Positions 1,390-42,659 of a stretch of DNA of 48,925 nt are shown here, piece after piece. Each line of letters begins with the position of its first letter. Positions within the stretch are counted from its first letter, which is position 1. The translations under genes and the position numbers were made by a program. The stretch lies in the IMG/VR virus record IMGVR_UViG_3300037991_004941, positions 1-48,925 of that record; one strand, written 5' to 3'. Under the pieces are notes generated by a model, which worked only from the letters and a program-made list of their open reading frames with translations, searched no databases and was not told where the DNA came from. The DNA is from a virus (taxonomy: Duplodnaviria > Caudoviricetes).

Positions 1390-1395
1390 GCCATT

Positions 1396-1418
1396 AAAAA
1401 GGGGGCATTGTGCCCCCC
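1396..1418 (-). terminator. Rho-independent terminator
   Basis: Minus strand reads GGGGGCA-CAA-TGCCCCC-TTTTT just after the stop of the 70-aa ORF. Confidence 0.85.
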
Positions 1419-1423
1419 TACTA

Positions 1424-1636: not shown

Positions 1637-1638
1637 AA

Positions 1639-1866
1639 TTAACCTTTTTGATCTTGGACTAACGTTAGTAAGAGAGACTTGATCTCACTCATATCAGATT
1701 TTAGGTTGGAAACGTCATTTTGTAAAGCTTCCATTTTTTCCTTTTCATCTTTTTCTGCCTGGTAGGCAGCCATATATTTTTTATATGAAGTGGAGTGGGA
1801 AAGATCTATAGCACCAGACTCTAGATCTTTTTGCCACCCCTCATTATCTTTAATTGGTAGTTTCAT
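1639..1866 (-). CDS. Small coiled-coil hypothetical protein
   Basis: 75-aa ORF whose start overlaps the upstream stop; C-terminal heptads (LQNDVSNLKSDMSEIKSLL). Confidence 0.8.
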   Translation of the reverse strand: MKLPIKDNEGWQKDLESGAIDLSHSTSYKKYMAAYQAEKDEKEKMEALQNDVSNLKSDMSEIKSLLLTLVQDQKG

Positions 1867-4800
1867 TATACTGCAAGAGCAATCGCTCTGAAGTCTTTAA
1901 TAATGGGGACAAATGCCTGATTAGGAGAAACAAATACCAGTTTGATTTGGAATGCCGTGAAGTCCAAACCATTCACTTCATATTCATAATCTTGATACAA
2001 CTCATTCTCCGTTGTTGCGGGAATAGTTGCATCACTCGTCGGGAAGAATTCGTAACCAATTGTATCAATCGATTCCGTGGATCCCGTAGGCACCACTCTA
2101 TATAGGGGTTTGATGAATGTATTGGGAGGACGGTAACCCGCAAAGATCAGTTTGATAGAAGATGATGGATTTGTAAGAGTTGCAACTTTAGTAATATATG
2201 CTGCAGTATGATCATCACCAGCAGGCAGAAGTGCGCTATTGGGATTAGAAGGATTGTTGATTCTGTTAGAAACTAACGTCACTGACAGACGATCCGTATC
2301 AATGATGGGAGATACATTTGTCACATCGCTCAGGAGATTCAAATCCATTCTCAAAGATTTAGCACCAGACAATTCGGAAGACTCGTTGATTTGTGAGCAA
2401 ATCAGTTGAGGTGAATTGAAGTAGTTGTCATTATTGAGAAGAATGTCATAGAATTCACCAGTGTTACTGAAGGAATTCTGACTCAAGTTGGTGCTGTCAT
2501 TGATAGATGTGCCCGTAATTGTATTGACTCTACCAGTAACATTTGTTTTAGGAAGTAACAGTCTCTGAATATTGGGAGACATGACTTCATATTGAATATT
2601 CTGAGTAGCAACAATATTACCACCACCAGACTTAATACCCAATCTACCGAGAGATGATGTAGCAACATCATAACTATCAATGGTAGGTGTTAGGATTGCC
2701 TCGTGAGTTTTATTGATCTCAGGAAGAGGAATGCCATCCAAGTTATAGCAATGGACCATTGTCTCATCTGCATGAGATACTGCCGTAGTGCCATCAATAC
2801 CTCTTTCATTAATGGTAATCGTCTTACCATTATTTGTAATTCCACTGTAAGACATAATCTCGTTGTGGATCTTAAGGAATCCGAGGTTGCTTGCACTGAC
2901 CGCAGCACCATTAATAATGGTGTGGAATGCACTTCCATCATTGACCTGAATAGTAGTATCAGTATCAGAGATAGATGATGTCAGGAATGTGGGGGATACC
3001 TCAGACTCAACACCTTCAATAACAACGTTATTGTCAGTATCATTCATTGCATGGTTGTAATGGAAGATTCTAACCTTTCTGTTGGATGCAGTATAAGTTG
3101 GAGTTGTGCTTACATATGCATCATCAACTGCACTACTGCTAGGGGTGGTGTCACCAGAATATGTGATCGTGGCAACTGTAGCAGTGGTATTTGAATCTCC
3201 GCCAGTAATTGTCTCTGTGCCTGGGTTAAACTCAGTTGAGATATAACGTAAGGTCAGAGTATTTGTGTTAGCATCCCAAGTAATGACTTCTGCACTAGGA
3301 GCAGATGCTGAGTTACCACTGATAGTCTCACCAACAGCAAAGTCGGCAGAGGGAGCAGTAACAGTCATGGTTGCAAGAGTCTTAGAAGAAACGACTCTAT
3401 TCAGAATGACTCCACCAGTGTTAGATCCAGCAGCCCAGTTGCCTGAGATGTCATTCACAGTCAAAACTGTGCCACCAACAGTATCTTCAACACCAACAAC
3501 AGTTGCCTGAGCAAGAGTTGTTTCTTGCTTAATTCTGGCACCAATAGTGAAGGCGAGAGTTGAATTCATAACCAGTTGCAATTCTGGTTGGAATGTTTGG
3601 ACAGCATCAATACCAAGATTGACTTTACCTTTGTTACCTCTATCCAGAGGTGCATTATTCAGAGTGATAACAGATGTCTTTGTATTATCGAATACTGCTC
3701 TGTTGATCTGGAATTTCAAGTCCTCATACTGGTCTGCTGTCCATGTAGTAGCGTTTTGAGACTTAAACAGGACACCTGCATATGGTTGCTCGGAGATTGT
3801 GCGGTCTCCAGAAATATCCAATTCACCCATTCTAGAGATCCAAACTTGATAGGAGTTGGAGTCAGAGAAGAGGACAAAGCAGTGCTCAATAGACTGTGGA
3901 ATATAAACGGGTGCTTGGAATACAAATGTAGTTGCAACAGATCCAGTTTCGGAAATCTGGACATCAGCAGGGTTGATAGTAACATCAGAGAAAGGAAGAA
4001 TAGTTGTCGTAGGATAACCATTTTCCATTGTCCTGATCTGCATAGAGATGGGAATATTCTCATCTTTAGCATTGAAGAATACAGAGACTGATGTAAGGAA
4101 TACACCACCTTCTTCATCAACCAGGAAAGATTGTGCAAGAGGGTCCCACCAACCAACCTGTCTAGATTCTGTCCGAGTCGAGCTGACTGTCCGATCTTGA
4201 CTTACAGTATCTCTAACAATATCTGCATTTCTGATAGCAAGGACGTTTTCTTGGACAGTATTCAAGGTACCTGCTGCAGCATATTCTGCCTGTGCGGCAG
4301 ATGCAACAGCACCAGGAAGACGTGAATCATCTTCGTTAGTTGTAAATCTAATGACTCTAGTGCCAGTATTCCAACGAGGATTGGTATCGACACCAGGATC
4401 AGGAATAGCAAAGGATCCTCGGTATTGTCCAAGTCTATCTGTGACGATTCTTCTATTTTGGACAACAGCAGTTGCACCAGATTCACCCTCAAGGATTTCT
4501 CCAACTTGGACATTTCCGAAGAATGACCCCTGTGCTTGCTCTGCAAGAGAAATGGTGTCAATATTCAAGAATGCTGTTGTGGATGAGTATGATGTGGGCA
4601 TAGCAGCATCATCATACGGATTAAATTTGAAGTAGTCATCAGGTGCAGCAACTCTAAACTTACAACCACTAGTAAGACCAGTTACTGTCTCGCCAATAAC
4701 GAAAGGAGTTGAGTTTGTCCGACTATCTGTAGAGGGATCTTTGATCAATTCAATAACCTTGGGGACAAGGAAATCATCAATCTTCTGACCATCAAAGAAT

Positions 4801-7800
4801 GCAAAGAAGGATGTCCGAGGTTTCATACGGACAATATTAACATCAACGTTTCTAGATCTAATCCAAGGAATTGCAGTAGAGGAAAGGACACTATCTCCAA
4901 GAGATTGGCGATCAATCCTGGGGACAACTCTTGTCCGAATACCAGTCCTAGACAGAGATGTAGTGGTGGTGGTTGTGACGTTTTGCATAACTCGTCTACC
5001 ACGACCAGGACGGAAGTTAGCAAACGTATGCTCTCTCCAAGATCCACCTGCAACAGGTCCACTAGTGGAGCTCCAGTTAGTCCTCCAGGCATTCCACTGA
5101 ATAGGTGCAAAACCATTCTGATCAACATTCAGTCTTTCCTGAGTTGCCCTAAAGTCACCTTCCATATTGGTAACTCTAGTTGGCAGACGGTTAGTATCTA
5201 CCCAGTCATCAGATGCAGGAGTAAGATCGATTCTACCAATATAAGCAAAAACGTTGAATGGGTTAACATTCTCAACACGAGATGCATATGGTTGATCAAC
5301 TAATAATTCCTCTTGATATGGAAGAGTGATCAGAGGACCAGTCTTTTGGTAGTTGGCAGAAAGGGACTCATTAAGTACAAGAGGTACGTTTGTAGTGTAG
5401 TGAGAAGGTCTGCAGGTGCCCTCAACATAATCGAGAGCAACACCATAATCTTCAAGACCAACAGCAGATTTTGCATGATCAGTAAAGTCGTCAACCAGGA
5501 AACCATTCTTAAATCTATTCTTACCAGCAGCATCAGTGATCTGGAAGTTGATTGTATCTGCTTCAAGCATGTTGATAGCAGTATAGTATTCAACTTGGTC
5601 AAGACGCTTTTCAATAGATCCAATATCTCTCATTGTATAACGTCTGTTATCAGACTTGACGATGATTACATCATCTTCTGGATCAAAACCATAGGGTCTG
5701 TGTCTGAGCAGAGCAAGTTGCATACCCTCAGCGATGTCATCGGGAGGATTGGGAATCTCTTCAGACTTACCTTTAACAACTTGGAATTCACCATTAGGCA
5801 GCAAGAATAGTTTGTCAATTCTAGGCAGATACCAGTCGAAGTCACAACGGAAGTCGCTATTCAGTTTAGGAATGTCAATCAGCGTTGCTGCAGGTGTAGA
5901 AGAGGTTGGGAATACTCTTGACTTAAAGTCAAATGTGGAGCAATTTACAAATGCAGGAGATGCAACTGTGCCAGATCCACTGTAAAGATTCTTACAACCA
6001 GGACGGAAATCTAGGAAATCTGCAAGGAATGCTTCACCATAGAAAGGCACATCCTCATAATCAGTATCCAGATAAGATTGACCACCAAAATAGTCACCAG
6101 TTGCAGAATGATTGTAGTAATCAAGGACAACTTTTAACTTACGAATAGGTGTTGCAACACCTTTCTGTCTAACCAGAGCAGAAGTTGTATATAAGAAGTT
6201 GGTTTGACCATCGCGAAGTTGATATCTATCGGTGACAACTTTAGATCCAATAACCACAGACCCATCAGAGTCATTGATAATTCCACTGATTGCATTGTTG
6301 CTGCTATCAAAACCATTTACAATTTCACCAGGGACTAATTGACCAGAAAGATATACGATAGTCAACTTAAGGGTGCTGGAGTTGAAGTCTACAACACGAG
6401 CACGAGCACCAGAAGTTTTGCCAATAACAACAGATCCAGTTGCAAAGAAAGACGGCTCAACTAAGGTGACAGAGGGAATTACGGGATCTGCATCATCCAG
6501 TGATTCATAGACAGCATGAATATTATATGCATCAATCAGACCCAAAGAAATCTCTTTGTCTTCAATTCTAGTGCCATACAAGAATGAATGAGTCAGACCA
6601 TAGTTTTGCTTGTCAAGATTACTCTGAGTTTTGTTAACCTTCAGAATAAACATTCTAGAAGGAGACTTAGTTTTTCTTGTGGTAAAGTTTTTGGATACTG
6701 TGCCAGTAACTTTAACAGTGGTAATGTTTGTCAGATTATCGATCTGCAGAGTAGTCCTCTCAGCAGAAGTAAATGATGTATAACCAAATGCACCAGTATT
6801 GGTGTCATCAATAGGAATCTGAGATCCAACAGGATATGATCCGTTGCTGGATGCCATTACGGTAAACGTAAAATGGTTATCAGAAAGTGCAGCAAACTGC
6901 TCATTTTCTGGCAACGTAATTGAGATGGAGTTAGATGCAACAGTCTGTGAATCGAATGTCCTTCTGACAGTCATTGATTCGTCAGAAATGCTCTTGACAT
7001 AAGGTCTAGGCATTCTGCTCATCAGATCTGCATTTTCAAGACCAAACAGTTTTCCTCTATATCTCAGCAATGCTGTATATGTGCCAGCAACAGGAGCAAC
7101 TGCTCCAGGAGTTACATTGACAACCTGAGTTTGATAATTGAAAATTGTGCCTACTCTAGATGCACCAAGATTAGTAGGATCTACTAAATCAACAGTTACA
7201 AACGCAGTGTCCGAGAAGTAAATTTTATCTCCAGGTCTCAGGTCAGCAGCAAAATTACTATTCAGACCAGTAATAGTCTCAGATCCACCAGTTGCATCAT
7301 ATGTAAACGATGCACCTTGCACCAGTTTGATATTCTCAAGCATCAAATCAGCAGTAAATTCTACTGCTTGTGTGATTTCATCCCGAGCAGCAAAAGATCT
7401 GGTGTCAGAATACACATAAGTATGGAAGTGTGTAATAGTATCTAAGTTGAGTCCATCAACTGTTACCATTTCACCTGTTTGGAAGGTGCCTTCTACCTGA
7501 TAGACAGGAATATCATTACTAGAAGAAACACTACTAATTACATATGCTCTAGCACCAGAGTTTACACCAACAATAATAGATCCCTGTTGGACATCAACAT
7601 CACTATTGAGCATCAGGATAGTAACCATCTGGACATCAGACAGATGCAACTTATAGATATCATCTGCGTTACCAAAAACGCCATCAGGATTGGAAGTAAA
7701 CTCGCAAGATTTTACACGAGCATAACCAATCAAGTTGCCACTGATGTCTCCAGGAGTTGCAATCGCATTATCATACAACTCAACCGTTTGATAATGATTT

Positions 7801-9041
7801 GAGATTGTTGCACCAGAGCAATTTGGGAAACCGAAAATATTATTGATGTTTGAGAAGTTGCCCATCTCAAACGGGATAATAACGTTTTGTGCAGCATCAG
7901 TTGATCTTGGTTTGTCAAGATCCAAATAAACTGGACTGAGGTTTTTGATTCTATAACCTCTTACATATGCAACACCAGGACTGAATTCAACTGCATACAT
8001 TGCAGAAGACGCACCATTCCCCTGTGCAGTAGTTTCTCCCTGTGTATATACACCATTATTGAATCCATCATCCAGATTCTCTCTCATGGTGATCTGGAAA
8101 TCATTTACAACATAGTTTCCAGACTCTTCATAAGTCCTGAGAGCCATGGTCTTCTCAATTTCATCGTATGCACTACGATCGACCAATTTTTCAATCTTAT
8201 TGCCGTTAATTCTAAGCAATTCGATGAAGTCTTTATCTGCATCATCAGACAATAACTTCTTAGTAAGATTTGTGCTTATCTTGAATCGGTGAGCACCAGG
8301 AGCAGCATAGTTAGATGTGCCTGCAGCGTTATCATTAAGGGATAAGTCATCTTCTGGGGTGATGATTGACTCAAGGATTTCGAGACCGACTCTGTATTTG
8401 GGGTTAGTTCCATACTGATCAAGGAGGATATACTGATAAGGTACGTCAACAAAGAAACCTCTGATGAAGTATACACCTTCTTGGACATATGCAACAGATC
8501 CTGTTTGAAGTGCATCAGTAGGAAGCAACTGAGCAAACGGAGATCCAACTTCAATGAGAGTAGTGCCGAAAGTAATTTCTGTGTCTGTTACTAACTGCTC
8601 GTTGTTGGTAAATGTATTCTGACTGTTTTGCTCACCACCAGATTCAATATACTTGACGTAAATCGTAATATAACCACGCTCAGATTCTGCAGCAGGAATA
8701 CTATATAAAACTTTTGCTTTGACACCAGATGTTAGACCAGTAATAATTTTGTTGTCTAACTGTGACCGATAGTCCTCAACGTTTGCACCAAGGAAAGATT
8801 CCTGGAGCATGATTGCATTGACATTTAAGTCATAACCCACTTGTCCTGGGATGACCATGGCACCATCCTTAAACAGGTGCGAACCAACACTTTCAACCTG
8901 ATTTTGCAAAATACTTTGCATGGTTGTAAGTTCTCTCGCCTGAATCGGATATCCAGGGCGATACAACACTCGATAAAAGTTTTTCGCCTTATCGAAATCG
9001 TCGTAGTAAGGTGTGACGTTTAGGTTGGTGTTCTGTGCCAT
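1866..9041 (-). CDS. Large virion structural protein, DUF4815/VrlC-like
   Basis: 2391 aa; N-terminus PYYDDFD...LYRPGYPIQARELTTMQSILQNQ, internal NGFLVDDF and DPLAQSF, C-terminal PIIKDFRAIAL; position after gp8 is typical of cyanomyoviruses. Confidence 0.85.
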   Translation of the reverse strand: MAQNTNLNVTPYYDDFDKAKNFYRVLYRPGYPIQARELTTMQSILQNQVESVGSHLFKDGAMVIPGQVGYDLNVNAIMLQESFLGANVEDYRSQLDNKIITGLTSGVKAKVLYSIPAAESERGYITIYVKYIESGGEQNSQNTFTNNEQLVTDTEITFGTTLIEVGSPFAQLLPTDALQTGSVAYVQEGVYFIRGFFVDVPYQYILLDQYGTNPKYRVGLEILESIITPEDDLSLNDNAAGTSNYAAPGAHRFKISTNLTKKLLSDDADKDFIELLRINGNKIEKLVDRSAYDEIEKTMALRTYEESGNYVVNDFQITMRENLDDGFNNGVYTQGETTAQGNGASSAMYAVEFSPGVAYVRGYRIKNLSPVYLDLDKPRSTDAAQNVIIPFEMGNFSNINNIFGFPNCSGATISNHYQTVELYDNAIATPGDISGNLIGYARVKSCEFTSNPDGVFGNADDIYKLHLSDVQMVTILMLNSDVDVQQGSIIVGVNSGARAYVISSVSSSNDIPVYQVEGTFQTGEMVTVDGLNLDTITHFHTYVYSDTRSFAARDEITQAVEFTADLMLENIKLVQGASFTYDATGGSETITGLNSNFAADLRPGDKIYFSDTAFVTVDLVDPTNLGASRVGTIFNYQTQVVNVTPGAVAPVAGTYTALLRYRGKLFGLENADLMSRMPRPYVKSISDESMTVRRTFDSQTVASNSISITLPENEQFAALSDNHFTFTVMASSNGSYPVGSQIPIDDTNTGAFGYTSFTSAERTTLQIDNLTNITTVKVTGTVSKNFTTRKTKSPSRMFILKVNKTQSNLDKQNYGLTHSFLYGTRIEDKEISLGLIDAYNIHAVYESLDDADPVIPSVTLVEPSFFATGSVVIGKTSGARARVVDFNSSTLKLTIVYLSGQLVPGEIVNGFDSSNNAISGIINDSDGSVVIGSKVVTDRYQLRDGQTNFLYTTSALVRQKGVATPIRKLKVVLDYYNHSATGDYFGGQSYLDTDYEDVPFYGEAFLADFLDFRPGCKNLYSGSGTVASPAFVNCSTFDFKSRVFPTSSTPAATLIDIPKLNSDFRCDFDWYLPRIDKLFLLPNGEFQVVKGKSEEIPNPPDDIAEGMQLALLRHRPYGFDPEDDVIIVKSDNRRYTMRDIGSIEKRLDQVEYYTAINMLEADTINFQITDAAGKNRFKNGFLVDDFTDHAKSAVGLEDYGVALDYVEGTCRPSHYTTNVPLVLNESLSANYQKTGPLITLPYQEELLVDQPYASRVENVNPFNVFAYIGRIDLTPASDDWVDTNRLPTRVTNMEGDFRATQERLNVDQNGFAPIQWNAWRTNWSSTSGPVAGGSWREHTFANFRPGRGRRVMQNVTTTTTTSLSRTGIRTRVVPRIDRQSLGDSVLSSTAIPWIRSRNVDVNIVRMKPRTSFFAFFDGQKIDDFLVPKVIELIKDPSTDSRTNSTPFVIGETVTGLTSGCKFRVAAPDDYFKFNPYDDAAMPTSYSSTTAFLNIDTISLAEQAQGSFFGNVQVGEILEGESGATAVVQNRRIVTDRLGQYRGSFAIPDPGVDTNPRWNTGTRVIRFTTNEDDSRLPGAVASAAQAEYAAAGTLNTVQENVLAIRNADIVRDTVSQDRTVSSTRTESRQVGWWDPLAQSFLVDEEGGVFLTSVSVFFNAKDENIPISMQIRTMENGYPTTTILPFSDVTINPADVQISETGSVATTFVFQAPVYIPQSIEHCFVLFSDSNSYQVWISRMGELDISGDRTISEQPYAGVLFKSQNATTWTADQYEDLKFQINRAVFDNTKTSVITLNNAPLDRGNKGKVNLGIDAVQTFQPELQLVMNSTLAFTIGARIKQETTLAQATVVGVEDTVGGTVLTVNDISGNWAAGSNTGGVILNRVVSSKTLATMTVTAPSADFAVGETISGNSASAPSAEVITWDANTNTLTLRYISTEFNPGTETITGGDSNTTATVATITYSGDTTPSSSAVDDAYVSTTPTYTASNRKVRIFHYNHAMNDTDNNVVIEGVESEVSPTFLTSSISDTDTTIQVNDGSAFHTIINGAAVSASNLGFLKIHNEIMSYSGITNNGKTITINERGIDGTTAVSHADETMVHCYNLDGIPLPEINKTHEAILTPTIDSYDVATSSLGRLGIKSGGGNIVATQNIQYEVMSPNIQRLLLPKTNVTGRVNTITGTSINDSTNLSQNSFSNTGEFYDILLNNDNYFNSPQLICSQINESSELSGAKSLRMDLNLLSDVTNVSPIIDTDRLSVTLVSNRINNPSNPNSALLPAGDDHTAAYITKVATLTNPSSSIKLIFAGYRPPNTFIKPLYRVVPTGSTESIDTIGYEFFPTSDATIPATTENELYQDYEYEVNGLDFTAFQIKLVFVSPNQAFVPIIKDFRAIALAV

Positions 9042-10573
9042 TAGAATTCGATTACGATTTTAATATCTTCGATCTGGTCGTTTGCACGACTAATTGCTCT
9101 TCTATTATCTATGTAAATAATATCACCGTCATTTGACTTAATCTCGGGTTTTGCATACCCATTATTAAACTTCATACCCAAGTCATATTCAGTATTGTTA
9201 ATAGTCCTTGAAGAAGAGTTAGGGACTGCTGGGAAGTTTACATCGGGTTGACCTGAGGCACCAGATGTTGCTCCACTAATTACGTTTGATCCATCAAATT
9301 CATTAAGTGTGCCTGTAACTTCGGGGAAAATACCATCAACATTATTTTGATAATACTTCAATACCTTAGTAGTAGCATTCCAAGAAACAACCCGACCTCT
9401 TGCAGTAACATTCTGACCACCAACAACTCTATTTTGAGTGATGATTTCGTCAGGAGTATAGTTACCTTGGAAAGAAGGTGGGAAGATAACTGCTTTAGCA
9501 GCAGATACCGTCAAGTCAGAAAGTAATTCTTCTGTGCCAAACTTCTTAGGGTTAGTAATCAAACCAATACGACGATAGTCGTTATCAATAGGGAAGTCAC
9601 CAGCACCTTCAGCATATGATGTCTTGGAGTTGATCATCACACGGAAAGCACCTAATTCGACAATAGGGTCGAAACCATGACCATTCGGAGGAGGAATGAT
9701 AACGTCAACCTGACCACTGGTCCCTGTGCCAATGCCAGTAATGTTATCAACACTAATCTTACCAAAAGTATATCCTGTGCCACCAGAAGTAACAGTAGCA
9801 GAAATAATCTTACCACCGTCTACAACGATTGATACCCTACCACCTGTGCCATCACCGTTAATTGCAACATTGTCGTATGTGCCGTTGTTATAACCTGTGC
9901 CCGCAGATGTAATAACAACCGTATCAACTTCACCAGATACAGCATTCGTCTTGACCGCATCGTTGACGAAAACTGGCATGTAATCGTTGGAGAAAAACTT
10001 CAAAACAGAAGCAACAGGGATGGTGTAAAGATATTTCCAGCGATAACTATCAGCAGTAGTGATAATAGAAGTAGAAGTGCCAGTCGGCTCAACCGTTGAC
10101 GGTTTACCGTTAGGATCTGATGGAGATGTGCCATTGTAGATACACTTGTATACTTGATACTGAGAATTCACAACATAAAAGTCGGAATCATACAGTTTAG
10201 TAGCACCAGATGAAGCAGTTTTACTTGGAGAGTAATCGTGACGATACATATCGTATGTAAAACCCAAACCACCAGTGGTTTGCTCTGGAGACACCCAGTC
10301 AATTCTACGAACAACCTGAATCGTATCAGATGCCAATACACGCTTTAGCGCGATCATGTCATCGTAAGATCCAGAAAATTCTTGGAAAGAATCAACTGCC
10401 TGCGGCGGTGAATTTTCATTGTCCCATGATTGGGGACGCCCAATAAAGATGTACAAACGATCTCTCGTTGCACCTGCTACATCGTCACTTTGGGTGGCGA
10501 CAGGACCTTCAAGGGCTTTGATAAATTTCTTCGCAGAAAAAATTCTAAATTGATCAGTTAGTAGGGCGGCCAT
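9041..10573 (-). CDS. gp8: Baseplate wedge subunit gp8
   Basis: 510 aa; motifs LYIFIGRPQSW, VYKCIYNG, YRWKYLYTI, NDYRRIGLITNP and C-terminal IYIDNRRAISRANDQIEDIKIVIEF. Confidence 0.9.
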   Translation of the reverse strand: MAALLTDQFRIFSAKKFIKALEGPVATQSDDVAGATRDRLYIFIGRPQSWDNENSPPQAVDSFQEFSGSYDDMIALKRVLASDTIQVVRRIDWVSPEQTTGGLGFTYDMYRHDYSPSKTASSGATKLYDSDFYVVNSQYQVYKCIYNGTSPSDPNGKPSTVEPTGTSTSIITTADSYRWKYLYTIPVASVLKFFSNDYMPVFVNDAVKTNAVSGEVDTVVITSAGTGYNNGTYDNVAINGDGTGGRVSIVVDGGKIISATVTSGGTGYTFGKISVDNITGIGTGTSGQVDVIIPPPNGHGFDPIVELGAFRVMINSKTSYAEGAGDFPIDNDYRRIGLITNPKKFGTEELLSDLTVSAAKAVIFPPSFQGNYTPDEIITQNRVVGGQNVTARGRVVSWNATTKVLKYYQNNVDGIFPEVTGTLNEFDGSNVISGATSGASGQPDVNFPAVPNSSSRTINNTEYDLGMKFNNGYAKPEIKSNDGDIIYIDNRRAISRANDQIEDIKIVIEF

Positions 10574-10601
10574 TTAAATAGGGACTAGTATTCCTCTTGT
10601 C

Positions 10602-10608
10602 TATTTAT
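10602..10608 (-). promoter_or_regulatory. T4-like late promoter (ATAAATA)
   Basis: tatttat in the short gap upstream of gp8. Confidence 0.75.
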
Positions 10609-10613
10609 TAAGG

Positions 10614-14807: not shown

Positions 14808-14813
14808 TTTTTA

Positions 14814-16034: not shown

Positions 16035-16054
16035 TTCTCGCCACGATTTTTAGT

Positions 16055-16062
16055 TATTTATA
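16055..16062 (-). promoter_or_regulatory. T4 late promoter consensus TATAAATA overlapping the gp7 stop codon
   Basis: tatttata on + at 16055-16062, about 20 nt upstream of the next ATG. Confidence 0.8.
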
Positions 16063-31000: not shown

Positions 31001-34000
31001 CTCATCTTGGGTGATAACACCATCTCGGTTTTCGTCTTCGACTTCAAACAGCAATACATCACCATTCTCTAAGGTAAGAGCATTAGTAGAAGCATTAGGA
31101 GTCCTCTCAACATCAATATCAACATTCTCATATGGGTCTCTATAACGGACAACTCCAGTAGGAATGTTTTGCTGGACAGATGAATCCTTAAGATTCCAAA
31201 TATCTACAACAGAGTTATAACTAGGACCAAGAATGTAAGGATATACAGGAAGACCATTTTCAGATGCATCGATAGTAACAAAGTAGCAATATCTACCTTG
31301 GGGATACTCAGGAGTCTTACAGAATCTGCCATTATATTGATCAAGATCACCAGATCCGAAAACATACTCATAGTCTTCAACAAACTTACCTGCAGGCTCT
31401 TCATTCAGAAGAGGACCATCACTTCTTACTGGATATGGGTTTGTAATATCATTAAATACGAGTTGCGTCTTCAGTGAATATGAAGAGCGCATTCTTTGGA
31501 TATTGGAAGATTGATTGGTAGGATCCTGATATCCATAAGGACCATAAATCGGGTTACCATCAAATGCCCAACCAATAATAGGAGAGTGCTCTAACTGAGA
31601 CTCTTGCTCAAGAATTCTACCCAGACTATCCTTAAACAAGTTATCACCAAGAATATATCTCAGTCTTTGTGGGTTAGAGAGGTGTGCATATTCACCACCA
31701 TATTGAATGTTATATCCCTCAAATACGGTGCCCATTGCAGAGTCAAACGGAGTAGTCTCTTGCAGGTTATAATTCCATTGGAATACATCAGCATCAAACA
31801 ATGCATCTTGTCCAACAGATGTCAGATTAATTACAGTAGTGCCCTGATTATATCCAATACCTCTGTTGAGAATTTCAACACCAGTAACACGACCAGCATT
31901 CTCACCATCAGTATCGATGATTGCTCTAGCAATAGCACCAAAACCATCACCCTGAATAGAAACTGTGGGTGCAGTGGTATATCCAACACCAGCAGAAATG
32001 ATAGCAATAGAAATGATTCTACCGTCATTTACAATTGCTTGTGCAACAGCACCTCTACCAGAGCTAAGAGTAACTGTAGGTTTAGAAGTATATGAAGATC
32101 CACCTTCAGTGATATCAACTTGCTGAATGGGTCCTCTGACAGACGCAGTAGCAGTTGCACCAGTTCCTCCACCACCAACAATAGTGATCAGAGGTTGGGA
32201 AGTGTATCCCGATCCGCCACTATTAACAAGAATTCTAGAAACTACTCCTTTGGTAATAATTGCAGTTGCAGATCCACCAGATCCTCCACCACCAACAATA
32301 GATACCAGGGGAGATGAAGTATAACCAGATCCACCATTATTAACCTCAACCTCATAGAGAGATCCATTGACGGTTACTTCCGCTGTAGCACCACTACCGC
32401 CACCACCAGCAATAGTAATTGCAGGAGGACTTGCTGCATCATATTCCTTACCAGCGTTGGTGATGTTAACAGCAGTAACAGCACCAAAAGTGCGACTCAA
32501 TTCAGACTTATAAGACCAAACAGATACACCATTGACCCATGTGCCAATAGGACCAGGGACAATAGCAGTCTTAGTCGAAATAGTAGTGGTAGTTGTATTG
32601 AAACGGTTTAATTTTCTCTGGTTGCCAGGGAGAAGTGCAGATCCAGGGAAAGGACCAATCTCATAGTTAGGAATACCAGTAGAAGCAACATAAACGTATT
32701 GATTATTGAAGAATGTGTTTTGGACGTTAGTAGTATAAGGTCCGATTGCATTTAAAATTGCAGCATTTTCTGACTTGCCTTTGTTAAGGTCAACAGAGAT
32801 AAGAATATTACCTTGTGGCTCAACAGCAGCAGGTTGTGGTAACTGGTATTGGAAGACCGTCTGGGAGTCCCTAGATGTGACAAGGAAAGTGCCGTTATAA
32901 AGAATTGGGTTAGCACCATATACGGTAACCTGATCACCAACCAGGAGACCATGAGGAGCTGAGCAAGTTACAGTAGCAGACTGATTATTAACGCCACCAA
33001 AAGTGATCGAAGAAACTTCAATGAGTTTTTTGACGTTATATAACCACGTTGTCAACTGGGGTAATGTGGAAGTGCCGCCCAGTTTAGAAACTGACAGTTT
33101 ATCACCAGGAAGATAGTAAGATCCAGTATCAGTAAGGTTAGTTTGCTGAGCATCAACAATACCAACAATATTCATTACGACTTCGTTGATCGTGCCGTAA
33201 TTTAAATAAACTCTAAAGTTAGAAGCTACACTAGTTGCAGAATCCCAAATTTGGGGAGCTCCAACAACGCCTCTAGTACACTCAATAAACTGGTTGAGGG
33301 ATTTTTCCTTATATCTTACAGTTTCTGTGCCACCAATTACAATTTCACCGTTTCTTTCAGGCCAACCAATGGTAGAGTCAACGGTAATAATATCACTAGT
33401 TGCAGTAAGTGGCTCAGCAAGTTTAGTTTTATAGGGCACAACAAATGTGCCTTGAATTGTCTCTTCAGACAAGACCAATTCATAAATTTCAGATTCTGCT
33501 GTGTTAATAGCAATGTAGTTTTCAACCAAAGCATTTGCTGCCCGAATATTCGGATCTGCAATGTCAGCAAATTGTTGAATTTGAGCATCTCTAATATTTC
33601 TGGGGTCGCCACTAATAAGTGTTGCTCTCAGAATAGTATTGATCGACCAAGTAGCAGCAGATGGTTTGATAAGTTGATCTTTCGGATAAGAAACCGAAAT
33701 ATCCTCACCATAAAGGAGTTTGAAGAGATAACCAAAGGAAAATGACGTGCCTTTCGTAGAATAGAAAGTTTTGACATTCTTAATGGCAGATCTGACATCA
33801 ATAGACTCATAATCGAGTTGGGGGATGTCAGGAAGATATTCTTCAATGTATTTGTCTAAAACTCTCTTGACAAATACCGCATCCAAGCAAGTTACAACGC
33901 TATTGCTGTCATGAGGTGCAGCATCAGTGTCACCCGAAAAAATTACATCTCCTGTTTCGGTATATCCAGAAATTGCAGACGCTGCTCTAGCACATCCAAC

Positions 34001-35860: not shown

Positions 35861-35866
35861 TTATAT

Positions 35867-37888
35867 TCAGAAACAAGTGTTATCTGGGATGTCGCCAGGT
35901 CCAGTGAGATCAGGAATTACAATAGTTGTCGGAGCTGATTCAAACTGTCCAGGATTAAGACTATTTATTGGGATAGTGGGAGGTGGAGTCGTGCCAGAAG
36001 GTCTAACTGTAATCTGAGGAACTGGGATTTCGATAACAGTATCTGGCTCAGGTGTGCCAATAATTCCAGGGTTTGCAGGAATTGCTTCTACAGGAATTTT
36101 GGGTTCTCCAATATTATCAATATCATCATCAGTTGGATTAGGTGGTAAGTTATTACCTCCAGTGCCAATAATATTTACAGGTCCAAAACAGACTTTTCCA
36201 GTCTCATAATTGATTGTGCCTGCATTGGTGCTAGTAACAATCTTTCTGTTACCACTGTTATAGAATGTAAGCAGTTTTCCGAAACCATCATCTTCAAAAT
36301 ATTGATCAACATTAGGGAATTCTACCGTGCGGAATCTTCCTGATTGGATAATCGGCTCTTTATTACAGGGGTCACCACTATCACCACTAGGAGCAGGTTT
36401 AGATGGAGCACTATCAAAGAGTGGGTTACCAAAAGTAAAGCAATATGTATTGGTTTCAGTCAGATTCGGATTGACATACTTGAGCATGACAACCTGAGAA
36501 GAAACGTCAGTAATACAAGCATCAGACTCTGTAATTGCTTTATGGAAAGCAGAAAGTTTGAATTGATTACCAAAGTTGTTAATTTCTGTCTGTGCTGCCC
36601 AATTGGTGATTGCATTTTGGACATTAGACTCAATTGCAGTCACATTTCTTGCAGAGCAAGCAGTATCATAAGTAACAAATACTCTAGGATAGATAAAGAC
36701 AGATTTTGCATCTGTAATAACAGGCTCAATAGATGCCATTGCATATCTTCTCATCATGGCAGAGAGAGACTTCTTAGTTGCGTCATTCAACTGAGATCCC
36801 GTCTTAGTCTTGATTGCAATAAAAACCTTTCCGTAGATAGGCGGAGATAACTCATCACCACCAAATGCAACTGCACTCAAAACATTATCATAGATTCTCT
36901 TAATAATGACCTCGTAGTCATTTGTAGTAACTGCTCTGTATTGTGCGCTATACCACCTGGGAGCATTATATTTAATGGACTCAACACTTTCAATAGGACT
37001 ACCAAGTTGACCAGTCTCCATGACGGTCAAACTAATTTTAGATGAATCGCTATTGTCATAGAGACGACCATTACTATCCACCATTTCACCTTTAAAGGCG
37101 AATGACTTAGTGCCGTTTGCTTCTTCACCAGAAGTAACAACATATTCTAAATTAATGATCTCACCATCAGTGAGTTTTCTACCACTAGTGTTGTCACCAA
37201 AAGTAATTTCAAATCTCTGATCCTGATCTTCATCTAGGAAGTAAATACGATCAGTTGCTCTAACACTAGTTAAATTTTCTACTCTATTATAAACATCTGC
37301 ACTAGTGCTAGATGCATTTGCTCTAACACTAACTTTCAATGTTGATGTATCCGCATCAGCACTGGGAATGATATATCTCGTGGGATTAAATGTATCTACT
37401 GTATATTTAAAATTGACAACAGATCCTTCATATGCAGTAACACATTCAAATACAGCACTACAACTTGCAGGATCAACAACTACAGTTTGATCTTCTAAAA
37501 TATTCCAAATATACTTTCCACCCGCAGCAATAGGACCCTTCTTTAGGGTAATATTATTCGGACACACTCCATCATCCCCAGGTACTGTCGTAACAACGAT
37601 GTTAAACGCTGCTCTAGACGCCAGAGGGGACTTTGGCGTGTAGTTAAACATCTTGGCAAGGGAAACGATGTTATCCCTTACTGTAGCGGATTGTAGGAAT
37701 GCCTCATTCAACGACATGTTAGCAAGATATGCCGTATAATAAGTATTATACGCCAACATATCGATGAGGTAGGACAAACCAGATCCCTCAAAGTCATAAT
37801 CAGAGAATTCATCTCTAGTTTTGAGATAACTCTTGATTGATGACTTAATGTCATCAAAATTTAATGCTGTTAAGTTATTGGGGAGCAT
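35867..37888 (-). CDS. gp6: Baseplate wedge subunit gp6
   Basis: 673 aa; LNFDDIKSSIKSYLK..FSDYDFEGSGLSYLIDMLAYNTYY, ESIKYNAPRWYSAQYRAVTTNDY, GKVFIAIK. Confidence 0.92.
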   Translation of the reverse strand: MLPNNLTALNFDDIKSSIKSYLKTRDEFSDYDFEGSGLSYLIDMLAYNTYYTAYLANMSLNEAFLQSATVRDNIVSLAKMFNYTPKSPLASRAAFNIVVTTVPGDDGVCPNNITLKKGPIAAGGKYIWNILEDQTVVVDPASCSAVFECVTAYEGSVVNFKYTVDTFNPTRYIIPSADADTSTLKVSVRANASSTSADVYNRVENLTSVRATDRIYFLDEDQDQRFEITFGDNTSGRKLTDGEIINLEYVVTSGEEANGTKSFAFKGEMVDSNGRLYDNSDSSKISLTVMETGQLGSPIESVESIKYNAPRWYSAQYRAVTTNDYEVIIKRIYDNVLSAVAFGGDELSPPIYGKVFIAIKTKTGSQLNDATKKSLSAMMRRYAMASIEPVITDAKSVFIYPRVFVTYDTACSARNVTAIESNVQNAITNWAAQTEINNFGNQFKLSAFHKAITESDACITDVSSQVVMLKYVNPNLTETNTYCFTFGNPLFDSAPSKPAPSGDSGDPCNKEPIIQSGRFRTVEFPNVDQYFEDDGFGKLLTFYNSGNRKIVTSTNAGTINYETGKVCFGPVNIIGTGGNNLPPNPTDDDIDNIGEPKIPVEAIPANPGIIGTPEPDTVIEIPVPQITVRPSGTTPPPTIPINSLNPGQFESAPTTIVIPDLTGPGDIPDNTCF

Positions 37889-38304
37889 TATGGCCTCTTT
37901 AATACAAAACTAATTTGCTCAGTGATTGGCAATCCAATAATTTCATATTGAATAGACACATTCATTGCGTTTGCATCATAATCTGCGATAACTTCCACCA
38001 ATTCTAAAGCAATTCTAGGCTCAAAGTTTTGAATGGTGTTTGTGATCTCCATTCTAATTCTATCTACCAAGAAAGGATCCATAGGCTCAAACAATAAGTC
38101 TGTAACGCTGGATCCAAATCTAGGATTAAAAAATTTCTCACCAGGAACGGTCAAAATCAGATTTTTGACCGATTGCTTGATTGCATCCTGATTCGTAACT
38201 TTGGTTGTGTCTTTAGTAAAAGGATTTTTCAAGAAATTCATAGAAATATCAGAAAAATTTCTAGATTTCTTAAAATCTTTACTAGTTAACGGTTTTAGAG
38301 CCAT
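37888..38304 (-). CDS. gp25: Baseplate wedge subunit gp25
   Basis: 138 aa; AIKQSVKNLILTVPGEKFFNPRFGS...LLFEP...IQNFEPRI. Confidence 0.93.
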   Translation of the reverse strand: MALKPLTSKDFKKSRNFSDISMNFLKNPFTKDTTKVTNQDAIKQSVKNLILTVPGEKFFNPRFGSSVTDLLFEPMDPFLVDRIRMEITNTIQNFEPRIALELVEVIADYDANAMNVSIQYEIIGLPITEQISFVLKRP

Positions 38305-38459
38305 CTTTCAAGAAAGTTTCCGTGACGGACTTTATTATTAGTCCGCTTTGCCGCCAAATTTAGATAACGATCTGATTTTGGGTCCGTAATTAAGACTACA
38401 GTTCCGAAATCTTTATTCATCATCTCAGGTACATGATCTGGGACGGGATTATTCGCCAT
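38295..38459 (-). CDS. Small hypothetical protein (54 aa)
   Basis: Translated by hand: MANNPVPDHVPEMMNKDFGTVVLITDPKSDRYLNLAAKRTNNKVRHGNFLERWL; follows a late promoter and overlaps the gp25 start. Confidence 0.65.
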   Translation of the reverse strand: MANNPVPDHVPEMMNKDFGTVVLITDPKSDRYLNLAAKRTNNKVRHGNFLERWL

Positions 38460-38516
38460 TTTAGGTTAAAAGCAATGTAAACAGAACTTTTAATGGGGTT
38501 TCTATCCCTCGTGTTT

Positions 38517-38523
38517 TATTTAT
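38517..38523 (-). promoter_or_regulatory. T4-like late promoter (ATAAATA)
   Basis: tatttat overlapping the stop codon of the upstream 54-aa ORF. Confidence 0.7.
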
Positions 38524-38684
38524 GACGGTTCTTCGAGAGACCAAGTAGGTGGGTGAAAATGACAATACTCATTGAAAGTGATTTTCATCTCTTTATTCGT
38601 CAAATTTGCGTGTTTTGCTGCTTTTGGCAAATTCCATTTTGCCGTAAACAGCATTTCCATAGACTCACGGGTCTCAGGTCTCAT
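38520..38684 (-). CDS. Small hypothetical protein (54 aa), possibly HTH-like
   Basis: Translated by hand: MRPETRESMEMLFTAKWNLPKAAKHANLTNKEMKITFNEYCHFHPPTWSLEEPS; ATGA overlap with the upstream stop. Confidence 0.7.
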   Translation of the reverse strand: MRPETRESMEMLFTAKWNLPKAAKHANLTNKEMKITFNEYCHFHPPTWSLEEPS

Positions 38685-38827
38685 TTACCTTGACCACGAT
38701 ACCGCTTTTTCGCCTTGTTACTGGATGTTGCAGCATATTTTGTGTGCTGACCAGATCCTTGACGAGTTTTCTTGGGAATTGAATCGATAAAAACATTACC
38801 AAGAAGCGATTTTTTCATTTTTGCCAT
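38681..38827 (-). CDS. Small highly basic protein (48 aa)
   Basis: MAKMKKSLLG...NKAKKRYRGQGK; start reassigned to the ATG 2 nt after the PAAR gene stop. Confidence 0.75.
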   Translation of the reverse strand: MAKMKKSLLGNVFIDSIPKKTRQGSGQHTKYAATSSNKAKKRYRGQGK

Positions 38828-38829
38828 AA

Positions 38830-39351
38830 TTAAGCTCCAATAAAGACGTTTGCTGATCCTGTAGAGATCAAAGATAGACACGGAGGTCCAAGAGGGTCAC
38901 CAACTCTACATGCTCTCTTACCCATGATAAAGACAGTTGCACTAGTAGCAGTTGCTTTTCTAATATGAGCACCGCCACCCGCAATATCCTCTACACAAAG
39001 ATTCTGTGTTGGACATGGGACAATTGCTGCACAGTTTGGTGGAGTCACCAATGGCACCAACTGTGTGCATGTTGGTGGATGATTGGTCAAAATATCCTGA
39101 TCCAAGATCGGACAGATATTATTGATCAATACTGTAGGGACAATAGGTTGCATGGGCAACTGAGGGAATGGTGGCCACATATTAGTGCCATCCATTGCAG
39201 CAATAGTCAATTTAGGCACTACTGCTGGACATGCAGTGCCACAAGGGTTTTCTTGCCACTTGTTTGCTGGCACACATGTACCATGACCCGTGTCTTTCCC
39301 TGTATAGATTGCTGCCGCACCTGGCAACCCTGTAATTGGACCTGCTGGCAT
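38830..39351 (-). CDS. PAAR-like spike-tip protein (gp5.4-like)
   Basis: DTGHG near the N-terminus; SATVFIMGKRACRVGDPL..C..ISTGSANVFIG at the C-terminus; lies upstream of gp25. Confidence 0.8.
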   Translation of the reverse strand: MPAGPITGLPGAAAIYTGKDTGHGTCVPANKWQENPCGTACPAVVPKLTIAAMDGTNMWPPFPQLPMQPIVPTVLINNICPILDQDILTNHPPTCTQLVPLVTPPNCAAIVPCPTQNLCVEDIAGGGAHIRKATATSATVFIMGKRACRVGDPLGPPCLSLISTGSANVFIGA

Positions 39352-39361
39352 TTTACTTTAA

Positions 39362-42300
39362 TTACTCCGTGATGTCAAAGGGATTTCCGTAGCTTGCTAC
39401 AGTTTGTGCCCAAAGTTGGGCAGATCTAGTCAGATCGTGAAATATCTGTTGAGTGCCGCTAGCAGTCCAGTTAGTACAACCAGGACCCAAAACAGGTGAT
39501 AATGTATATGTATATGTAGTAGTCGCCCCAGTCTCGGGATCAGTCTCTGCAGGAGACGAAGATGGCGCTGTTGGCGCACCAGCACAAGCCACATGACCGC
39601 AACCAGACTCAACAACAAATCCCTTTAGTGTAACCTCTACGGTAGATTTTTGTCTTTCGTCGGGTCTATATTGGGACATGTGATACTTAACCAAGTCAGT
39701 AGCGTGAGGAAGATCACCAAAACGCTCTTGAGTTGTGGAAATTAAGTTTTCCTTATAGATTGCATACTCAGGTATAATCACTTGTTGTAGATTATCTAAT
39801 GCCTGATCAATACTCTTAGTTTGAGAATCGTAGTGTGACTGGTATGCAGTCTGCCAAACTTCGGTCGCACCGATCTTACCAAGTGTTTTTGCTAAGTCAG
39901 CAGGGTCAGTTGGTTTCTTTTCGCGGATTGCTTCTCTAAGAGTGTCAACAACATTCTTACTATACCTAGACTGTGGTAGTTGAATGCGGCGTTGCAACTC
40001 AGGATCCTTCAATTGCTCGGAGGGATCTTGCCTAATAAATTGTTTAAAATCACCACCAACACGATCAACCTGCATCTGATTGACAAAATCTGGGTCTAGT
40101 CCGCCTTTACGCATCGCATCTCGCTGCCTGTCAACGATCTCATCACCCAGTTTCTTCTCAGATCCATCCGCTGCAGTGTATTCAGTATCAGCATCTCTAA
40201 TACTTTGCTCAATAGATCCCGCCCATTGCGGTTTAGATGCCTCTGATCCAGGGATAACTACCGTGGCAATCTCCTTTCTAAGGTCAGGCACGGTAAAAAC
40301 AATGTCATCTCCATTAGAAAGTCCGCGACCAGGATCAACAATTTCGATACCAGTTAGCACTCCATTTGAAAACGTGCCAATAACTTCAGGAATCACGGGA
40401 CGATTGTCCTGGTTTTTGGGGACTTTTACATATTTCCGCACACCATATGTCTGATTAAAGTCTTTGATGTATTCAGGCTCCTCTTCTGATCCCACATTAA
40501 TGAATCCATCAACATGAGATAGAAACTCTGGAGGGTCACTAGGGACCAGATTAGTGCCTAAAAACTCACGAGGAGTTGCATCTGGTCTATTGACGACCGT
40601 TTTTAGCGTCAATGGTTTGTTAACAATGTCAACAACTTGATTGAGTCCCGCACCACCATCAACAATTTGCATGGATACCAACTTACCATTTTCAATTTTT
40701 AGGGTTTGGACCTGTGCATCAGTCTCATAATTGGAGTAATCGAATGGTTGACCAATAGAATTACCATCTTCATCGTAAGATACGGGGTTAAGATTGACAG
40801 GTTGATTCAATGTAACCGTATTTCCGCTCCTAGAAGTGATATATGTGCCAGGACTGAAGAGTGGACCCTTGACAGTATGACCAATTTCAAACTTAGAAGC
40901 GTCAGAAGAGTTGACTACTTCAATCTGATTGCTATCAACATTCATTACTACCCTACAACCATAGTCAAATACGGGTTGTCTGCAAGTGTCAAAGACGTTT
41001 GGCGCAGCAGAATCCCTCAAATGGGTCGTATATTGGAAAGATTTTTGGGTAAATTCGTATAATCCACCATACCATGCACGATTTTTAGCACCAAAACCTG
41101 CTAATGCGGTAATTTGGTGATTTCTACTGGATGTATAACCTTGTCCACCAGTAAATTCAGCGCCAGCTCCGTCCAAATACGCAATATGGTAGTTAAAATT
41201 GTCCAAATCTGTGTGAAACATCCTTGTAATGACGTGACCATTGATCGTATCACCACTTCTGAGGATGTCTCCACCGTTATTTTGCGTTACTTGGATAGGT
41301 CCAGTAGCGGTAATCTTAATATCGACGGTAAATTTAGTAACAGTATTGTCTGCATGGATGTGATCATACTCTAAAGTAAAGACATCATTGACATTATACC
41401 CCTGACCAGGCTCTACTAACTCAAGAATTTCCCATTTTGTGCCAGTAAATGACACTGTAGGAAGCACAGAAAGGTCTTGGACCGCACTAACACGCACTGT
41501 TAAGCGTAATCCTTGTGCAGATCCACTCTCAACATCATTACCTTCGATAACCAAGAATGTATTAAACCCTGCATCACTGCTCTGCCACCCTGTTTGAGTC
41601 GTAATAGTGGGTCCTGCACCAAAATTAGCACTAGACCAAGCAGGTGTATCAATTGCATCGTTACTATAAACGAAGTTAAAGTCCTTTACACCATTAGGAA
41701 GAGTGGTTGAAAACTGATCATAACTAAAAACCAACTTATTGCTAAGTGAATCAATAGCAAATAATGTGGGGAAGGGGCAATCGGGATCTCCAGTCTGGTC
41801 ACCATCAACCTCATCTGCTGTATAATCGATGGTCAGACGGTCCAGGGTGCAACTAAAATCAGTGCAAGGGATACATCTACCCCCACTGTCCGTAGATCCT
41901 GCTGTGCCAAGTCCTGTCTCGGGGTCAGTGCCTGCACTAGTTGACCTATCCTCAGTCTCATACTTATAGCAAGCAGTGCCTACATGACCACCATTACACC
42001 CACTAGTATACAAATAAGAAAACCATGTATCACTAAGCATCAAACCAAATGACAATCCATTCGGCACATAGTCAAAAATAACATAGGTATCACCAATCCC
42101 ACCCGCATCAGCAATAACAACCTTGCCACAGTTTGCTGCAGATTGAGATGAAGCACCAGTAGGAGAAGTATAATTGGATCTACCATACTCTTGAATCACG
42201 GTGCTACCATACATGACAGCATCACGAGGCATATTATCAATGTTTGCCTCACGAATCCTAATCGGTGATACATGACAATCAAACTCTACAGTAACTGCAC

Positions 42301-42421
42301 AAGGATCAACTGGTTTACGAGATTGACAATGGTCGGCAGCACCCCCAGCAAATCCCCAAAGAGGGACATCAAAGATATCGCCATCAGTGTGGCAACCACC
42401 CATTAATTTGATTTCAGCCAT
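39362..42421 (-). CDS. Large hypothetical protein, probably virion structural
   Basis: 1019 aa; beta-rich with PGQGY / IVDGGAG / IVDPGRG motifs like the neighbouring baseplate proteins; Cys-rich ends. Confidence 0.7.
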   Translation of the reverse strand: MAEIKLMGGCHTDGDIFDVPLWGFAGGAADHCQSRKPVDPCAVTVEFDCHVSPIRIREANIDNMPRDAVMYGSTVIQEYGRSNYTSPTGASSQSAANCGKVVIADAGGIGDTYVIFDYVPNGLSFGLMLSDTWFSYLYTSGCNGGHVGTACYKYETEDRSTSAGTDPETGLGTAGSTDSGGRCIPCTDFSCTLDRLTIDYTADEVDGDQTGDPDCPFPTLFAIDSLSNKLVFSYDQFSTTLPNGVKDFNFVYSNDAIDTPAWSSANFGAGPTITTQTGWQSSDAGFNTFLVIEGNDVESGSAQGLRLTVRVSAVQDLSVLPTVSFTGTKWEILELVEPGQGYNVNDVFTLEYDHIHADNTVTKFTVDIKITATGPIQVTQNNGGDILRSGDTINGHVITRMFHTDLDNFNYHIAYLDGAGAEFTGGQGYTSSRNHQITALAGFGAKNRAWYGGLYEFTQKSFQYTTHLRDSAAPNVFDTCRQPVFDYGCRVVMNVDSNQIEVVNSSDASKFEIGHTVKGPLFSPGTYITSRSGNTVTLNQPVNLNPVSYDEDGNSIGQPFDYSNYETDAQVQTLKIENGKLVSMQIVDGGAGLNQVVDIVNKPLTLKTVVNRPDATPREFLGTNLVPSDPPEFLSHVDGFINVGSEEEPEYIKDFNQTYGVRKYVKVPKNQDNRPVIPEVIGTFSNGVLTGIEIVDPGRGLSNGDDIVFTVPDLRKEIATVVIPGSEASKPQWAGSIEQSIRDADTEYTAADGSEKKLGDEIVDRQRDAMRKGGLDPDFVNQMQVDRVGGDFKQFIRQDPSEQLKDPELQRRIQLPQSRYSKNVVDTLREAIREKKPTDPADLAKTLGKIGATEVWQTAYQSHYDSQTKSIDQALDNLQQVIIPEYAIYKENLISTTQERFGDLPHATDLVKYHMSQYRPDERQKSTVEVTLKGFVVESGCGHVACAGAPTAPSSSPAETDPETGATTTYTYTLSPVLGPGCTNWTASGTQQIFHDLTRSAQLWAQTVASYGNPFDITE

Positions 42422-42659
42422 TTACCTTTTCTTCTAATGCGGTTAGTTTATCATAAATCAAATCTAAATTCTCTTTTAGTGACAAGTAATCCTCTACACC
42501 TTTGGGTTTATATAAAATCTTGTCAGGTGTAGGTAGGTTTTGCACATATTCCTCAATACCCTTGATCCTTGATCCAATTGCCTCAACACATTGATTTAAA
42601 GCATCATGAGCCATAGCATTATCATCTGCTAGGATTTGCACATCTCTTTCAATAGTCAT
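42414..42659 (-). CDS. Hypothetical protein
   Basis: 81-aa helical ORF overlapping the start of the next gene. Confidence 0.75.
   Translation of the reverse strand: MTIERDVQILADDNAMAHDALNQCVEAIGSRIKGIEEYVQNLPTPDKILYKPKGVEDYLSLKENLDLIYDKLTALEEKVNG

Follow-up and report, generated by a model that had tools for sequence, protein, structure and literature searches.

Adjacent nuclease and methyltransferase genes directed at short sites of 2-4 bp are described in the chloroviruses, lytic viruses whose nucleases presumably break down host chromosomal DNA at an early stage of infection (PMC7019647; this and the other articles are cited for the parts of them that were available). Selection that strips short sites from double-stranded DNA phage genomes through synonymous changes is described for host-encoded enzymes, where mainly palindromic type II sites are avoided (Rusinov et al., 2018; PMC6286503); GAAC gives no whole-word match in six supplementary files of that study. 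The Dnd phosphorothioation (PT) system, DndBCDE-DndFGH, uses the words GAAC/GTTC, GATC and, as a minor site, GTAC (PMC6435447, PMC9521924, PMC8569181). The restriction enzymes of the ScaI family (PF09569) and related type IIP enzymes found with N4-cytosine methylases are proteins of about 200 amino acids (aa), with a D...ExK motif followed by GN and a beta-class SPPY partner. The DNA analysed here, called the window, is a viral stretch of 48,925 nt (IMG/VR record IMGVR_UViG_3300037991_004941), which is nearly purged of GAAC, GTTC and GTAC. This purge is probably self-avoidance: the phage would carry a type II-like system directed at host or rival DNA, for which the candidate is the gene pair gp61/gp62 found in relatives of the window such as cyanophage Syn9.

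Unlike the chloroviruses, the virus is a tailed marine phage of cyanobacteria, the predicted nuclease belongs to an unannotated family known from sequence alone, and the site purge is strong and genome-wide. In contrast to the cases of Rusinov et al. (2018), a phage gene is the best predictor of the purge and the most purged word is non-palindromic. With respect to the ScaI family, gp61 is alike in size, in a D...ExK motif that precedes GN and in its methylase partner, but it shows no hidden Markov model match, the direct comparison is non-significant, and its probable site is degenerate and of 4 bp.

In the original prediction the purge lets the phage evade a Dnd defence of its host (DndBCDE-FGH or similar) that acts on GAAC/GTTC/GTAC, while a phage Dam mimics the mark at GATC. 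The word set is that of the PT motifs of Salmonella Cerro 87, where GAAC/GTTC is canonical and GTAC accounts for about 6% of sites (PMC9521924); G-6mA-TC can substitute for PT against DndFGH and its use by phages has been proposed (PMC6435447), and Syn9 encodes a D12 Dam-like gene. However, dnd clusters are limited to Cyanobacteriales and cyanobacteria lack PT restriction genes according to PMC8569181. None of dndB/C/D and dptF/G/H occurs in the 60 available rows, of 65, for Cyanobiaceae in that source, which include WH7803, WH8102 and NATL2A; the Syn9 isolation host WH8012 is not among the rows seen. The same 60 rows contain lone dndE matches only, and another sheet shows a lone dndD in a few strains, with dndCD paired in none of the marine strains seen there (PMC8569181). 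A dndD profile search of the window gives no match, and the likeness to the Dnd motifs appears coincidental.

Depletion of GAAC, GTTC and GTAC in the window

The plus strand of the whole window contains 17 GAAC, 17 GTTC, 21 GTAC and 308 GATC. Under a maximal-order Markov model, GAAC/GTTC has the lowest z-score of all tetranucleotides (34 observed, 359.6 expected, observed/expected ratio (O/E) 0.09, z -21.8), and GTAC is the second most depleted (21 against 154.2, O/E 0.14). The segment 1981-4020, originally reported by eye to hold none of the three words, gives zero on recounting. The depleted regions are:

1866..42421, minus strand: nine virion and baseplate genes carrying a synonymous purge of GAAC/GTTC/GTAC, from annotation and codon shuffle; they encode a 2391-aa protein, gp8, a gp7-like 1397-aa protein, gp9/10, a 6600-aa virion protein, gp6, gp25, PAAR and a 1019-aa wedge protein
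1..48925, whole window: GAAC/GTTC O/E 0.09, GTAC 0.14, CCGG with 0 sites, RGCY low, GATC neutral

The nine genes of 1866-42421 (39,948 nt) were submitted to 60 synonymous-codon shuffles that preserve protein and codon usage. O/E is 0.05 for GTTC, 0.06 for GAAC and 0.10 for GTAC, and the coding strand holds 8 GAAC, 8 GTTC and 14 GTAC against 136, 164 and 142 expected. When the bases at codon junctions are also preserved, the values are 0.10 for GTTC, 0.10 for GAAC and 0.15 for GTAC, with depletion in all three frames. The depletion thus persists in the codon-preserving check proposed with the original prediction (O/E 0.05-0.15). It is present in the span first given, 1866..42421, but it is not confined to it: the small genes at 42414-48829 are also depleted, and the genome-wide spectrum of Syn9 is alike (GAAC 0.20, GTAC 0.26, CCGG 0.01, GATC 0.94). 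A longer recognition motif was rejected, as the residual GAAC/GTAC sites show no constant flank. In Syn9, nine host-like metabolic genes contain 2.8 GAAC/GTTC per kb versus 1.4 elsewhere, with just 20 sites, which hints weakly that incoming DNA has escaped the purge.

The codon choices described at first reading are borne out by the counts: Gly-Thr uses GGC in 117 of 125 cases, Glu-Pro uses GAG in 20 of 23, Val-Pro uses GTC/GTG in 36 of 41, and of 90 Gly codons that precede TC, 83 are GGA. Following a G-ending codon, AAC is used for one of 114 Asn, TTC for one of 73 Phe and TAC for two of 73 Tyr; ATC is not reduced in this position (48/154 versus 254/790). GATC was described as abundant, with about seven copies in 32090-32370; the recount gives seven there and the 308 sites stand, but there is no enrichment given the context, with O/E 0.97 in the Markov model and 1.12 with codon junctions preserved. 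Its excess is confined to one frame (95 versus 31), because GGA-TC remains the sole escape once GGT-TC (GTTC) and GGC-TC (GGCT) are both avoided.

The gp61/gp62 pair and its association with the purge

Syn9 gp62 is an N4/N6 methyltransferase (PF01555, E 9.5e-40) with intact amino-methylase motifs (SPPY and DPFMGAG), for which the reference matches that bear on m4C versus m6A span short stretches only, and it is overlapped by the unannotated upstream gene gp61. A single-sequence search with gp61 matches 17 of 50,697 phage records, and a methylase adjoins it in all 17. A gp61 profile built from 36 family members matches eight of 31 complete genomes. GAAC O/E, computed on 40 kb of structural region for 21 of these genomes and on the whole genome for 10, is 0.08-0.42 in the eight with the pair and 0.84-1.15 in the 23 without it, with no overlap. 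Among contigs, 66 of 80 methylase loci carry the nuclease gene alongside, and 64 of these 66 show GAAC O/E of 0.6 or less, versus seven of 80 contig loci picked by gp44 (L017-L096).

Both purged and unpurged phages are known from each of four isolation hosts, although an isolation host does not prove the natural host. For WH8102, GAAC is 0.14 in S-H35 versus 1.10 in S-SSM5 and 0.94 in S-ShM2; for WH7803, 0.19 in S-MbCM25 versus 0.91 in S-MbCM100, 0.89 in S-BM1, 0.88 in Syn30 and 0.94 in S-M1; for NATL2A, 0.08 in P-TIM40 versus 1.15 in P-SSM4; and for MW02, 0.18 in S-MS29 versus 1.03 in QB2. In S-SSM5 and QB2 the absence of the pair is based on the single-sequence gp61 search. Tryptophan halogenase was rejected as a discriminator, since it is present in 13 of 31 genomes, five of them unpurged. 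No literature report of a gp61/gp62-type pair or of GAAC avoidance in cyanophages was found in a search whose coverage excluded subscription journals and REBASE, and a marine methylome supplement gives no match to GAAC, GWAC, GWWC or GTWC.

Residues of gp61 and nuclease subfamilies

G77, D79, E96 and K98 are invariant across 36 gp61 sequences, and among 147 homologues D79 is kept in 146, E96 in 143 and K98 in 145. The spacing of D, E and K is that of the PD-(D/E)xK active site. The language-model neighbours of two members of gp61 subfamilies are the ScaI, ThaI, NgoBV and NspV restriction families (scores 0.91-0.93). A search of 802 genomes found one member of the ScaI family, and gp62 is 25% identical to a methylase adjoining a ScaI-family gene. 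On this evidence gp61 is predicted to be an endonuclease of PD-(D/E)xK type of about 200 aa, with activity and site likewise predicted, and the pair would work like a virus-encoded type II restriction-modification system, of which it is a putative member.

The loci were compared by nuclease subfamily after removal of near-duplicates (68 to 45 loci) and of loci below 8 kb (45 to 42). In subfamily a, that of Syn9, GATC O/E is at least 0.8 in 25 of 26 loci; L146, of this subfamily, loses GATC. Subfamily b shows loss of GATC in eight of eight loci (0.02-0.54), and subfamily c is mixed; most of the GATC-purging contigs are partial, which limits what they say about Dam. The early idea of a GWWC-directed system thus fits subfamily b, in which GATC is purged too, but not subfamily a, in which it is kept. 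G038, a complete genome of subfamily b, contains a Dam-like gene, yet its GATC is 0.51 and its GAAC 0.42. The subfamily split and G038 favour a difference in nuclease reading over masking by Dam; we lean towards GATC being retained since the enzyme does not read it, and masking by the phage Dam-like enzyme is a possible, less favoured explanation.

The proposed shielding of GATC by Dam does not agree with the distribution of D12 Dam-like genes, which are present in 30 of 31 complete genomes, GAAC-purged or not, nor with phages that carry a second Dam and lose GATC. As a discriminator Dam was rejected, since it adjoins gp44 in 68 of 80 loci: it accompanies all seven purged loci and also 61 of the 73 unpurged ones. 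In the 12 gp44 loci without it, the contig ends within 1.3 kb of gp44. A parallel case is that of G045 (S-RIM8), S-RS29 and S-M1, where the variable slot holds a second Dam and, after it, a protein of 200 aa with a MutH annotation in one relative; their GATC is 0.15-0.26, and QB2, looked at afterwards, has 0.18. In a grouping made post hoc, after the data were seen, GATC is 0.15-0.60 in seven unpurged genomes whose variable region contains a second D12 methylase and 0.73-0.91 in the other 16. GATC is not lost in Syn30 and ACG-2014f, which also give a second D12 match.

Gene content of the window and probable presence of the pair in its phage

By its protein and DNA similarities, the window is a Syn9-like T4-type cyanophage of the Kyanoviridae, near Ormenosvirus syn9. 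Syn9 is the closest relative (gp6 80.9% and gp8 98.0% identity) and a quick gp8 tree places the window as its sister; a Kyano_Gp96 match occurs among the window proteins, and the baseplate block is orthologous and colinear with that of Kyanoviridae. Other features are:

16058-35860, minus strand: virion protein of 6600 aa that contains YHYH and laminin G domains and exceeds its Syn9 orthologue by about 520 aa
42400-48100, minus strand: small early genes separated by repeated promoter-like cassettes (GTGTCCAC...TATA/TATT..AAGAGTCAA)
46195..47463, minus strand: DEAD/ResIII-type helicase, orthologue of Syn9 gp75 and landmark of the variable slot, where relatives have pairs of nuclease and methylase genes
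48104..48925, minus strand: 3' part of a ParB-like open reading frame (ORF), 273 of about 421 codons, clipped by the window end

The window itself contains no gp61/gp62 pair, as the original prediction had stated for such an enzyme gene. It ends 1.5 kb upstream of the helicase, and the Syn9 pair ends 2.9 kb upstream of its own. The pair is present on two contigs, L102 and L103, which follow the gene order of Syn9 35483-46353 colinearly, at 84% and 82%, and show GAAC O/E of 0.14 and 0.11; the window is 80-90% identical to Syn9 in nearby DNA. Both contigs break at a promoter-like repeat right after the methylase. In four sequencing runs (of 24 listed), each from a different study, which hold 0.76-0.85 of the sampled words of the window, L102:4000-10895 is covered in 30 of 30 bins by all four, in near-identical long pieces. 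We infer that the phage of the window carries the pair. Exact-pattern scans of viral and metagenome contigs gave no extension of the window, protein scans with the window-end ORF found other phages and not the window's own, and comparison of L102 and L103 with the window showed no real overlap.

The window-end ORF, with a DGNHR motif and no Pfam match, presumably belongs to a ParB-like family. A mobile passenger, it is absent from Syn9 and shows 87-96% DNA identity to passenger genes in L421-L430, and was therefore recently exchanged; in those loci the passenger follows a different nuclease and N4/N6 methylase pair, of the S-MbCM100 type.

Probable self-avoidance of a phage enzyme and the other explanations

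The comparative data back an alternative that the original prediction had mentioned, a nuclease that the phage itself encodes elsewhere than in the window. Upstream of the helicase, in the variable region, the lineage would carry a restriction-modification pair of two adjoining genes, for a gp61-family nuclease and then the beta-class methyltransferase gp62. The nuclease would be produced in infection and would cut unmodified DNA at GAAC/GTTC and GTAC, the targets being the host chromosome and perhaps co-infecting phages. If the methylase protects phage DNA just partly amid fast replication, each site would be a liability, and synonymous changes would have eliminated about 90% of them.

Several observations weigh against this self-avoidance. 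The eight positive genomes were picked knowing that the pair was present and share ancestry; in the quick gp8 tree they fall in two separate parts and require at least three changes (shuffled mean 7.3), so they amount to two or more contrasts and not to eight, and the p-values overstate their independence. In a comparison of 10 genomes, the pair is also accompanied by oxygenase and halogenase genes. L143 (GAAC 0.77) and L170 (0.87) carry the nuclease without strong purge, L164 (0.78) has a gp61 match 8 kb off, and GAAC is 0.6 or less in five of the 14 methylase loci where no nuclease of the family adjoins; in one of these five, L160, a distant match to gp61 lies 1.2 kb upstream. GTAC is partly independent of the pair: it is 0.00 in Syn1 and 0.27 in MED4-213, both without the pair, and 1.32 in L142, with it. 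gp61 has no Pfam, PADLOC or PDB match, 117 of its homologues yield one weak Eco47II match, and the gp61 profile against the single ScaI-family protein scores 10.2 (shuffled mean 11.6, probability 0.10, hhalign). The window is without the pair and no contig joins L102 to it. In nine other loci the ParB-like gene follows a different pair in unpurged DNA (GAAC 0.64-0.97), and this phage may have a second or replacing cassette in the gap beyond the window.

Among the other explanations, a restriction enzyme of an unsampled natural host, with GWAC/GWWC specificity, would make the methylase an anti-restriction enzyme and gp61 a passenger or dead nuclease. The isolation host may differ from the evolutionary host, phage methylases are commonly anti-restriction, gp62 fits an orphan methyltransferase best among the PADLOC models, and the absence of many 6-bp palindromes in Syn9 points to ordinary host restriction pressure. 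However, D-E-K is kept in nearly all of the gp61 homologues and the methylase is always adjacent, a functioning protective methylase should relax the purge and not deepen it, and the word set shifts with the nuclease subfamily. Active defences are also uncommon in these hosts (4/17 strains in the part available of PMC6708340), and the explanation is unlikely.

Purging by the methylase alone, through mutagenic or harmful methylation at GAAC/GTTC/GTAC with gp61 dispensable, is slightly more unlikely. The linkage of nuclease and methylase is near-perfect, so association cannot separate them, and the five partly depleted loci without an adjacent family nuclease agree with this explanation; the remaining nine of the 14 (0.61-1.13) are not depleted. 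Strong mutagenicity is not known for N4/N6 methylation, and the escapes are many different synonymous changes and not a single mutation type.

Evasion of a host Dnd defence is very improbable, as the 60 available host-family rows lack dndB/C/D and dptF/G/H, phages of the same host differ, the Dam-like gene is present irrespective of the GAAC purge, and the purge tracks the phage gene pair instead.

Other depleted words and further cassettes

The window is also short of words that the original prediction did not list: CCGG (0 versus 42.7), GGCC (6 versus 39), AGCT (30 versus 110.5) and AGCC/GGCT (39 versus 131). CCGG O/E is 0.00 in all 80 gp44 loci, where RGCY words are low in most, and 0.00-0.01 in 29 of 31 complete genomes. 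GAAC is bimodal in the same 80 loci, seven at 0.22 or below and 73 at 0.68-1.20. The loss of CCGG and RGCY words is thus a trait of the family as a whole, separate from that of GAAC, which is specific to certain lineages. A core phage nuclease or methylase may be behind the CCGG/RGCY loss. In marine myovirus-like genomes m4C methylases are frequent and RGCY is methylated (PMC8919816, in the part available), which may bear on this family-wide layer. S-CAM9, in which no D12 methylase was found, and ACG-2014f largely retain CCGG and RGCY; ACG-2014f lacks GGCC.

GTAC has a family baseline of about 0.6 and varies somewhat apart from GAAC. In Syn1 57001-97000 (L346-L347), GTAC O/E is 0.00 and GAAC 1.02, and the Syn1 genome gives no PF01555 match; GTAC is also low without the pair in P-TIM68 and G046. 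GCGC is 0.00 in P-SSM4, P-SSM7, MED4-213, P-TIM40 and G038, mostly Prochlorococcus phages, and CGCG is absent in three. L177-L179, with a distant gp62 homologue and a different upstream gene, show GACC/GGTC of 0.07-0.23 and depletion of GATC, which suggests a further specificity. In Syn9 (L006-L009), many 6-bp palindromes are absent or near-absent with respect to the 5-mer expectation: GTGCAC 0 versus 65, GCATGC 0 versus 36, TTCGAA 4 versus 45 and GTCGAC 0 versus 23.

The helicase-adjacent region is rich in diverse pairs of methylase and small nuclease genes (MutH-like, PDDEXK_11 and weakly PvuII-like), as in L183 1438-2965 and in L400, L401, L403, L405, L381, L373 and L371. One such nuclease gene shows what we take to be an EcoRI-like motif. 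In S-MbCM6 (L379 2274-2693), a second small PD-(D/E)xK gene (PDDEXK_5, E 0.002), annotated as a methyltransferase, follows the gp62 homologue. Tentatively, the region could be a swappable slot for the phages' own restriction-modification cassettes, each leaving a hole in the word spectrum. The gp61 family would then be a family of restriction enzymes of undescribed specificity, shifting between GWAC (GAAC/GTTC and GTAC, but not GATC) and full GWWC. It would serve as a weapon, both on the host chromosome and on unpurged co-infecting cyanophages.

Biological significance

Host DNA degradation accompanies the replication of Syn9 and P-TIM40, and the part available of that source names no enzyme for it (PMC6708340). 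Both phages carry the gp61/gp62 pair, a concrete candidate for the breakdown of the host chromosome in cultured model phages. A 4-bp GWAC or GWWC cutter would, if true, be an unusual specificity. Loss of sites from a phage genome need not signal host immunity; here it seems to signal an enzyme of the phage itself, and the sites of unannotated nucleases can be predicted from the words that are missing.

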